NCBI GenBank assembly: GCA_021513715.1
Contig: CP084167.1
Coordinates: forward strand, 2,815,060-2,835,059
DNA: 20,000 nucleotides
Direction of reading: 5' to 3'
Origin: Candidatus Heimdallarchaeum endolithica
Lineage (GTDB): Archaea > Asgardarchaeota > Heimdallarchaeia > Heimdallarchaeales > Heimdallarchaeaceae
Shown here: positions 14,690-14,869 of the stretch, one piece after another
Layout of the letters: each line of letters begins with the position of its first letter
Numbering within the stretch: the first letter of the stretch is position 1
The notes under the pieces: model-generated
Databases searched by the model: none
What the model was told of the DNA's origin: nothing
The model's input: only the letters and a program-made list of their open reading frames with translations
Position numbers and translations under genes: made by a program

Positions 14690-14869
14690 TCTAATGGCAA
14701 TTTCAGGTTCGGAATGAGTCTGAGTGTTGCCCTGCCGCTATGGCCGCGACGAATCGCAGCGAATGGCCGTTCCCAAGTGCTCTCGCAACTTAGTACAGGA
14801 CCACACGCTGGCAGGCTTAACTTTCCCGAGTTTCTGGAACACATCCAGATCCTTTCTGCTGCCATTAGA
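14690..14869 (-). rRNA. Circularly permuted 5S rRNA precursor (core 14702-14822; 3' half 14754-14822, UUCG linker 14750-14753, 5' half 14702-14749)
   Basis: The 3'-half signature AGTTAAGCCTGCCAGCGTGTGGTCCTGTACT...GCGAGAGC...TTGGGAACGGCCAT precedes the 5'-half signature GCGGCCATAGCGGCAGGGCAACACTCAGACTCATTCCGAACC. Helix I is GCTGCGA-TTCG-TCGCGGC. Helix II is GCGGCAGG/CCTGCC(A)GC. Helix IV is GTGGTC/GGCCAT. Helix V is CTAAG-TGC-GAGA-GCA-CTTGG. External stem TCTAATGGCAG/TTGCCATTAGA joins the new ends. Confidence 0.87.

Follow-up and report, generated by a model that had tools for sequence, protein, structure and literature searches.

A circularly permuted 5S rRNA gene in the Heimdallarchaeaceae and its probable maturation into a circular RNA

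Introduction

Where is the 5S rRNA gene of Heimdallarchaeum? The RNA is universal, and locating its gene in a cellular genome is considered a trivial task; yet in this lineage, which is grown in enrichment cultures and has closed genomes, the standard tools are blind to it. The authors of the complete Heimdallarchaeum genomes, including that of Candidatus (Ca.) H. aukensis, reported that no 5S gene could be predicted in them (PMC8813620). The question is addressed here with a stretch of 20,000 nucleotides from the chromosome of Ca. Heimdallarchaeum endolithica (GenBank assembly GCA_021513715.1, contig CP084167.1, positions 2,815,060 to 2,835,059), hereafter the window, whose coordinates are used below unless another locus is named. 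The window holds a 5S rRNA gene on its minus strand in which the 3' part comes before the 5' part. This circularly permuted gene order would explain why no 5S gene was detected in the complete genomes of the group and why standard tools find none in Heimdallarchaeum. We further consider it probable that the RNA is excised at a bulge-helix-bulge (BHB) motif formed by its leader and trailer, and then ligated into a covalently closed, circular mature 5S rRNA.

A 5S rRNA gene with its two parts in swapped order

Read along the minus strand, the locus begins with an A/T-rich upstream region and a leader, continues through the 3' part of the 5S rRNA, a UUCG and the 5' part, and ends with a trailer and a T-rich tract. 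The parts that make up the 5S rRNA itself are these:

14754-14822, minus strand: 3' part of the 5S rRNA, AGUUAAGCC...GCUGCGA by direct reading (in fuller letters AGUUAAGCCUGCCAGCG...UUGGGAACGGCCAUUCGCUGCGA), with loop B and the helix II 3' strand, helices IV-V with a GAGA loop, loop E and the helix I 3' strand; recognised by the model R1 described below, by RF00001 and by covariation
14750-14753, minus strand: UUCG tetraloop that links the conventional 3' and 5' ends and caps helix I
14702-14749, minus strand: 5' part of the 5S rRNA, UCGCGGCCAUAGCGG...CCUGAA (the whole part being UCGCGGCCAUAGCGGCAGGGCAACACUCAGACUCAUUCCGAACCUGAA), with the helix I 5' strand, loop A, the helix II 5' strand, helix III and loop C; recognised by R1, by a second RF00001 match and by a sequence profile at its positions 4-47

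A preliminary description of this DNA had already placed the two halves at these positions on the minus strand with four bases between them, exact to the base. Its outer coordinates, 14690-14869, turn out to be exactly the two strands of a leader-trailer stem that it did not notice; the flanking BHB signal and the second paralogue type described below are likewise absent from it.

Conventional archaeal 5S rRNA is an easy target for the Rfam model RF00001, which gives conventional loci 77-101 bits. At the gathering threshold this model has no match in the window, where the sole Rfam match is a tRNA. In E-value mode RF00001 reaches 31 bits at 14751-14875, under its cut-off of 38, and only the 3' half of the model aligns well; a second match of 13.6 bits puts model positions 27-51 at 14701-14725, downstream of the first. 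Both halves of a 5S rRNA are therefore present, with their order swapped. A related locus from a more distant genome (L003, below) behaves in the same way, with 27 bits and the 3' half alone aligning.

The effect of gene order can be separated from that of sequence by permuting the reference instead of the locus. A covariance model, R1, was built from 12 conventional 5S rRNAs permuted in silico: each was cut before AGUUAAG, its native ends were joined with TTCG, and the results were aligned (alignment A1) and given the 5S structure in permuted order. The source sequences came from metagenome contigs, some of Methanosarcinales, some of other archaea and two of them eukaryotic, and included no Heimdall sequence. 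On the window, R1 matches 14702-14822 of the minus strand end to end with 105.4 bits (E=3e-21), while the conventional loci from which it was derived, in their natural order, receive only 37-44 bits. The locus thus falls short of the 38 bits that RF00001 asks of a colinear gene through its gene order only. A profile hidden Markov model (HMM) that uses sequence alone, built from 13 conventional 5S rRNAs, gives the same answer. In genomic order it finds two swapped matches, HMM positions 45-119 (51.6 bits) followed by positions 4-47 (19.1 bits), whereas the rearranged sequence of 117 nt gives a single match of 81.3 bits over positions 5-116. The preliminary description had allowed that the rearranged sequence might score no better against 5S models than the sequence as written, and this doubt is overturned.

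Structure agrees with sequence. The rearranged RNA takes the canonical three-armed 5S fold at -44.8 kcal/mol, and every helix of that fold also forms in the permuted order, as had been drawn beforehand for helices I, II, IV and V with its GAGA loop. The conserved loop sequences of 5S rRNA, CCAUAGCGG, CAUUCCGAAC, AGUUAAGCC, GUACU and UGGGAA, are all present, and the 3' part stands upstream with the native ends linked by a short connector. The match to 5S rRNA is far beyond chance. The preliminary description had proposed a circularly permuted 5S rRNA gene in an archaeal-type chromosome; the chromosome is that of an Asgard archaeon (Heimdallarchaeaceae), and the proposal is borne out both by the scores (105.4 bits with R1 against 31 with RF00001) and by the relatives described next.

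Conservation and two paralogue types in the Heimdallarchaeaceae

Comparison with related Asgard genomes, which had been suggested at the outset, brought the number of loci with this permuted gene to 10, spread over at least four Heimdallarchaeaceae lineages, with R1 scores from 87.9 to 106 bits. The loci fall into two main types. Type A adjoins the genes for tRNA-His and GatE and comprises the window, L007 (Ca. H. aukensis), L017 and L003, the last from a more distant genome with a GatE 71% identical to that of the window; the type A locus of the closed Ca. Heimdallarchaeum aukensis PM71 genome (CP084166.1) is nearly identical to the window. Type B has other flanks and lies beside an SMC-like gene: L006 (H. 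aukensis), L024, L036, L043 (from the metagenome of L003) and L044 (GCA_054001415.1). The tenth, L039 (GCA_054386755.1, GatE 65% identical), shares the synteny of type A and has a simpler flank. The best two matches of the window's GatE are both named Candidatus Heimdallarchaeaceae archaeon, with 94% and 71% identity. Positions outside the window, in the coordinates of each locus, are:

6497-6617, minus strand: type B gene in L006
10725-10845, minus strand: type B gene in L043
11851-11971, plus strand: type B gene in L044
7568-7689, minus strand: permuted 5S gene in L039

Both types occur together in H. aukensis, which has two copies in its complete genome, and in the metagenome that gave L003 and L043. 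The duplication into types A and B predates the split of these two lineages, provided that L003 and L043 belong to a single genome.

Compensatory changes have maintained the fold. In the R1 alignment of the nine distinct sequences, 96% of the cells of the 5S fold hold standard pairs; sliding the partners by 1-3 columns lowers this to 27-38%. Both sides have changed in seven pairs, and compensatory changes are found in helices I, II, IV and V; in helix I, for example, the closing pair A-U has become U-A in L039 and a G-C has become A-U in L044. The loop that links the conventional ends is UUCG or UGCG, and so a UNCG tetraloop, at all 10 loci. The same arrangement recurs in independent assemblies, among them a closed genome and several metagenomes from JGI and NCBI. 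Together with the compensatory evolution and the two maintained paralogues, this makes both a mis-assembly and a pseudogene very unlikely.

A pattern scan of 185,579 species genomes for the permuted order returned only Ca. H. aukensis and one chance match. The pattern needed exact motifs and does not reach L039 or L044, so its result is no evidence of rarity. Walks along the synteny found neither kind of 5S gene within 6-10 kb at L040, L041 and L042 (GatE 60-64% identical), nor at L045 and L046 (SMC-like protein 47-48% identical).

Does a conventional 5S gene exist beside the permuted one? Apart from the permuted locus, the Rfam and R1 scans found no 5S in the window, and a metagenome scan with a gamma-domain motif, which is blind to gene order, met Heimdall-type sequences only in permuted order. 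Conventional 5S genes that carry the gamma-domain motif were considered as close relatives and rejected: they belong to Methanosarcinales, to other lineages or to eukaryotes and not to Asgard archaea, and are silent on when the permutation arose.

A predicted bulge-helix-bulge between leader and trailer

The sequences on either side of the permuted 5S rRNA are complementary. The BHB is the motif of archaeal tRNA introns and of the processing stems of 16S and 23S rRNA, and its elements can be placed in the window as follows, together with those features that bear on transcription:

14909-14916, minus strand: TATA-like box TTTTTAAA within GAAAGUAAGAUUUUUAAAC, a putative archaeal promoter
14859-14869, minus strand: leader strand UCUAAUGGCAG of the 11-bp leader-trailer stem, paired with 14700-14690 in the minimum free energy (MFE) fold
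14833-14849, minus strand: leader hairpin UCUGGA-UGUGU-UCCAGA, set between the leader-trailer stem and the central BHB helix; predicted to be lost along with the rest of the leader
14825-14828, minus strand: CGGG, leader strand of the 4-bp BHB central helix, pairing with CCUG at 14707-14704
14822-14824, minus strand: 5' bulge AAA, invariant in 10 of 10 loci; predicted cut after the second A, so that the RNA would start at A14822
14701-14707, minus strand: CCUG (14707-14704, kept in the 5S rRNA) and then the 3' bulge AAA (14703-14701), invariant in 10 of 10 loci; predicted cut after A14702
14690-14700, minus strand: trailer strand UUGCCAUUAGA of the leader-trailer stem, directly after the 3' bulge, from the MFE fold and comparison with L003
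14673-14685, minus strand: T-rich tract UAUUUUCUUUU, a likely archaeal terminator
14471-14558, minus strand: neighbouring tRNA-His(GUG), with a 16-nt intron at 37/38

The TATA-like sequence is kept upstream of the type A copies (window, L007, L017 and L003), L039 has a similar AAGAUUUUUAAG, and T-runs follow the trailer at all loci. A GCCUA motif at about 14891-14894 of the minus strand was also observed, as GCCUAUUGC in type A and GCCUAACAA in type B (for example in the leader of L006). It lies some 15-25 nt downstream of the TATA-like boxes in both paralogue types, pairs with the distal trailer in the MFE fold of type B, and may mark the start of transcription.

The core of the motif, C(A/G)GG paired with CCUG and flanked by the two AAA bulges, is invariant across the 10 loci; its leader strand reads CAGG in type B and L039 and CGGG in type A, and is always complementary to CCUG. 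The clearest case is L039. Here the leader UGUCUCCUGCUGUGC pairs with the trailer GCGUA-U-GCAGGAGACA in a stem of 15 bp with one bulged U, CAGG:CCUG abuts this stem, and an unpaired AAA follows both CAGG in the leader and CCUG in the trailer. The flank of L039 is thus a canonical BHB: within a long processing stem, a helix of 4 bp has a 3-nt bulge at either end, one on each strand. It has no leader hairpin, and the BHB conformer is the unconstrained MFE structure of the 218-nt precursor. In type B the same core adjoins a 5-bp helix (GUGGU:ACCAC in L006, GUGGU:GCCAC in L043 and UUGGU:ACCAG in L044), with a leader hairpin upstream of the H1 helix and an outer stem further out; the BHB conformer of L006 is within 0.2 kcal/mol of the MFE. 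Type A has a third architecture, in which the stem abuts the trailer bulge and a hairpin lies on the leader side. Its trailer side is regular: CCUG and AAA are followed at once by the 11-bp stem. Compared with L003, this stem shows compensatory double changes at three pairs and a single change besides; L017 has a U-G in place of one C-G. Taken over all types, the helix after the trailer bulge is paired in 98.4% of the cells of alignment A4, in which the type A rows were spliced by hand; its sequence varies among the types, and each of its five pairs has changed on both strands.

The neighbouring tRNA-His, 150 nt away, offers a comparison from the same DNA. Drawn by hand from its exon boundaries, its intron presents a BHB of CUGU:GCAG between the bulges GGG and AAA, and the exon boundaries at 37/38 fall after the second nucleotide of each bulge; when the anticodon arm was folded in isolation, this hand-drawn BHB did not appear. 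An intron of the BHB type in tRNA-His implies that the organism needs a BHB endonuclease and a ligase. The intron itself differs between very close relatives: the tRNA-His gene beside the 5S gene is 88 nt with its intron in the window, and 72 nt and intronless in L007 (6822-6893) and L003 (3782-3853).

Proposed maturation

We take the locus to be a functional gene and one of the organism's genuine 5S genes. These observations suggest the following route, which, judged from sequence and comparison, we hold to be the probable one. The gene would be transcribed independently, from the TATA-like box to the oligo-T tract, in the order leader, 3' part, UUCG, 5' part and trailer. Leader and trailer would pair in the 11-bp stem, with CGGG:CCUG adjoining it and an AAA bulge on each strand, forming the BHB. 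EndA, the archaeal tRNA-splicing endonuclease, would then cut after the second nucleotide of each bulge, as predicted from the general rule for BHB motifs and from the tRNA-His intron of the same window. The cuts would fall between the second and third A of C(A/G)GG-AAA-GUUAAG on the leader side and of CCUG-AAA-stem on the trailer side, and release an RNA of 121 nt from A14822 to A14702, which is exactly the stretch matched by R1. Both bulges being AAA, any pair of equivalent cuts yields the same product.

Ligation of the RtcB type would join the two ends, so that CCUGAA-AGUUAAGCC restores the normal connection between helix III and loop B. The junction, ...CAUUCCGAACCUGAA joined to AGUUAAGCCUGCC..., is a sequence absent from the DNA as written. 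The predicted CCUGAA/AGUUAAG, with the slash at the ligation point, agrees in length and register with CCCGGA-AGUUAAGCC of conventional archaeal 5S rRNA. In the mature fold CUGA pairs with UCAG as helix III, and this overlaps the CCUG of the precursor BHB. The two structures are mutually exclusive, and a refolding step would thus follow excision. The product would be a covalently closed 5S rRNA in which every helix has its standard position and the UNCG tetraloop caps helix I. We favour the circle as the end product because the connector is a minimal, conserved UNCG loop without a spacer. Native 5S ends joined by 4 nt are tolerated by E. coli ribosomes (PMC7283268). The permuted order, the 5S fold with its conservation and covariation, the conserved geometry of the BHB and the exactly restored junction can be read from the sequences, whereas the enzymes, the ligation, the circular end state, the promoter and the terminator are inferred.

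Several points weigh against this route. The leader strand of type A has 31 nt, including the hairpin, between the stem and CGGG, which makes the type A motif a three-way junction and not a simple canonical BHB. Its BHB conformer lies above the MFE by 4.8 kcal/mol in the window and 5.1 kcal/mol in L003, the MFE structure pairing AGG with CCU and UCGGGA with UUCCGA instead, and a competing CAG:CUG pairing sits right beside the stem. Past the 5' bulge, every copy has either a weak helix or one provided by the 5S body (GUU:AAC), facing a loop of 18 nt. For the locus of the window, acceptance of the type A junction by the endonuclease is the weakest point of the model. Beyond type A, the genome-wide absence of a conventional 5S gene rests on one methods sentence in PMC8813620, and sequence cannot tell a final circle from a circle that is later re-opened.

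An outer BHB in type A, formed by CAG beside the stem and keeping about 32 extra nucleotides in the product, was also considered and is unlikely: its central helix would have 3 bp and an A-C mismatch, several of the differences between the window and L003 fall at and just after the site, and the corresponding hairpin of type B lies in the discarded leader.

The excision and ligation route could be extended to a broader proposal, namely that in the Heimdallarchaeaceae every ribosomal 5S rRNA is a closed circle made only by the splicing endonuclease and a ligase, with no linear 5S rRNA in the cell. We put this forward tentatively, as a possibility just short of an even chance. Were it so, ribosome production in these archaea would depend on the RNA splicing machinery.

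Alternative fates of the RNA

The alternative that survives best accepts the same gene, excision and ligation, and takes the circle for an intermediate that is re-opened at or near the UNCG loop to give a linear 5S rRNA. It has precedents. Permuted tRNAs pass through a circle during their maturation, and the circle is subsequently opened (cited in PMC4267664 and PMC3326292), and the circular precursors of 16S and 23S rRNA are generally thought to be re-linearised (PMC12918454). At our locus, however, a conserved UNCG tetraloop closing a 7-bp helix is all that connects the ends; there is no spacer and no recognisable processing site, and no enzyme is known that would open this connector. Circular 23S rRNA has moreover been reported in mature archaeal ribosomes (PMC12918454), which means that a circular end state would not be unusual. 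We regard re-opening as unlikely, though it deserves to be taken seriously.

Somewhat less likely again is a mature 5S rRNA that stays linear and permuted, trimmed at the BHB or by other nucleases, never ligated, with its break in loop B and perhaps with the leader-trailer stem retained as a terminal helix. All 5S helices can indeed form without ligation, as the break falls between helix III and loop B, and the permuted 5S rRNA of stramenopile mitochondria is linear in its final state (PMC4267664). Such an RNA would leave unexplained an invariant 4-bp helix and two 3-nt bulges so placed that ligation restores the canonical spacing exactly, and circularisation normally acts on RNA that was cut out at a BHB (PMC4731332). 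Type A, type B and L039 have, furthermore, flanking stems that share neither sequence nor architecture, a difference more in keeping with a processing stem that is thrown away than with an element kept in the ribosome.

The last alternative is that the locus does not work, being a pseudogene, a mis-assembly or what is left of a tandem 5S duplication, and that the true 5S gene lies elsewhere. It is largely refuted and to our mind highly improbable: the sub-threshold RF00001 score and a leader that by eye resembled a degenerate 5' half spoke for it, while against it stand the recurrence in independent assemblies including a closed genome, compensatory changes that maintain every helix, two paralogues each conserved across lineages, the failure to predict any 5S in the complete genomes (PMC8813620), and a similarity of leader and 5' half no better than that of shuffled sequences (p=0.25 to 1). 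The idea of a duplication remnant, in which the type A trailer was likewise taken by eye for a degenerate helix II strand, was dropped on the p-values of global alignments against 2000 shuffles, which were 0.25-1.0 for the leaders and 0.22-0.85 for the trailers.

Consequences for annotation and for the lineage

Permuted 5S genes are missed by RNAmmer and by pipelines built on Rfam and Infernal, and gene callers lay hypothetical open reading frames (ORFs) over them. In the window, two mechanically called ORFs, one of 85 aa (14671-14928, minus strand) and one of 73 aa (14714-14935, plus strand), cover parts of the permuted gene. In the public record behind L003 a gene of 123 aa without a Pfam match (1988-2359) is called right across the 5S locus. 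The MIMAG criterion for a high-quality genome asks for a 5S gene. Standards of this kind will consequently under-rate the genomes of the Heimdallarchaeaceae.

Among known archaea, the Heimdallarchaeaceae are some of the nearest relatives of eukaryotes. Should the proposed maturation prove correct, theirs would be, to our knowledge, the first rRNA gene outside organelles that is permuted in the DNA, and the first 5S rRNA whose normal strand connection is recovered only through BHB excision and ligation. It would also add, in the Asgard archaea, a third class of RNA rescued by the splicing machinery after tRNA and the RNA of the signal recognition particle (SRP).

Neighbouring genes

Besides the 5S and tRNA-His genes, the window carries genes for GatE, GatD, a cytidylyltransferase, two Ras-family GTPases, a DUF2122 nuclease, Memo and a TnpB-like protein. 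The block of Memo, Ras, DUF2122, cytidylyltransferase, Ras, GatE and GatD is syntenic, with local inversions, in all the Heimdallarchaeaceae loci that were fetched. The two small GTPases, of the Ras/Roc/Arf type, lie on either side of the DUF2122 nuclease gene (15514-16035 and 16627-17154, both minus strand). An ORF of 448 aa at 18275-19621 on the plus strand has Cas12f1-like TNB and OrfB_IS605 domains, the mark of a TnpB-type transposon-associated nuclease; at L040 a TnpB-like gene is inserted just upstream of GatE. One further region, 10000-10500 on the plus strand between two minus-strand ORFs, is purine-rich, with a GC content of 0.42 (window average about 0.32) and a GC skew of +0.38. It holds no ORF of at least 60 aa and no Rfam match even at E<=1, and could be an undescribed or otherwise unrecognisable RNA gene.

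Comparison with known systems

On the reading proposed here, a known maturation logic is applied to a further RNA, and a universal one, in a lineage of special interest for evolution; the published "missing gene" is accounted for at the same time. A full-text search of open-access papers and bioRxiv found no published description of a permuted or obligatorily circular archaeal 5S rRNA. It has in fact been stated that 5S, unlike 16S and 23S, is not processed via circularisation (PMC12918454), and in Sulfolobus circular 5S was seen only at a low level, with uncertain meaning (PMC3326292).

The closest parallel is the permuted SRP RNA of Thermoproteus, for which the leader-trailer BHB was cut by recombinant endonuclease, the RNA was found to be circular and its junctions were shown (Plagens et al. 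2015, eLife, PMC4731332). There, too, an essential structured non-coding RNA is encoded with its 3' part first and a BHB formed by leader and trailer, RtcB is the proposed ligase, and the canonical gene was reported to be undetectable in the genomes concerned. The two cases differ in the RNA and the lineage (SRP RNA in Thermoproteota, 5S rRNA in Asgard) and in the kind of evidence, which was experimental there and comes from sequence here. The Thermoproteus endonuclease belongs to the heterotetrameric family with relaxed specificity.

Permuted tRNA genes are known from the nucleus of Cyanidioschyzon merolae and have also been reported in Thermofilum. They resemble the Heimdall gene in their upstream 3' half, their BHB-like flanks and a circular RNA stage. 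The tRNA circle, however, is re-opened at its linker by RNase P and tRNase Z, while the linker of the 5S rRNA is merely a UNCG tetraloop.

The permuted mitochondrial 5S rRNA of brown algae and other stramenopiles, mtPerm-5S (RF02547; Valach et al. 2014, PMC4267664), was the parallel drawn in the preliminary description. The parallel stands in so far as this too is a permuted 5S rRNA with a non-standard domain order, missed or misannotated by standard models; it is only a loose one, as the topology of the permutation differs. In mtPerm-5S helix I is replaced by a terminal hairpin, the ends lie at the alpha/gamma junction, and the final RNA is linear and permuted, organellar and without a BHB. 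The Heimdall locus is chromosomal, keeps helix I intact (7 bp, with the conventional ends and a UNCG cap) and has its break between helix III and loop B. The features that define mtPerm-5S are thus not those of our locus, where RF02547 was also not listed in the Rfam scan, which kept only the best member of the clan (CL00113).

Archaeal pre-16S and pre-23S rRNAs are circularised at a BHB: a long leader-trailer stem carries the motif, and the rRNA is excised and ligated. Examples are the circularly permuted 23S rRNA of Pyrococcus furiosus (PMC7758197) and the circular 23S rRNA reported in ribosomes (PMC12918454), and the circle may be the mature rRNA. The genes concerned have the normal order; in Pyrococcus it is the RNA that becomes permuted. 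In the Heimdallarchaeaceae it is in the DNA, which would make ligation obligatory for restoring the normal strand connection.

Finally, circularly permuted 5S rRNAs have been engineered in E. coli (Huang et al. 2020, PMC7283268) by joining the native ends through a 4-nt connector and opening the molecule elsewhere, and the ribosomes that contain them work. These RNAs are artificial and bacterial, were opened in loop C or D and are embedded in 23S rRNA. If the maturation proposed here is true, the Heimdall gene would be their natural counterpart.

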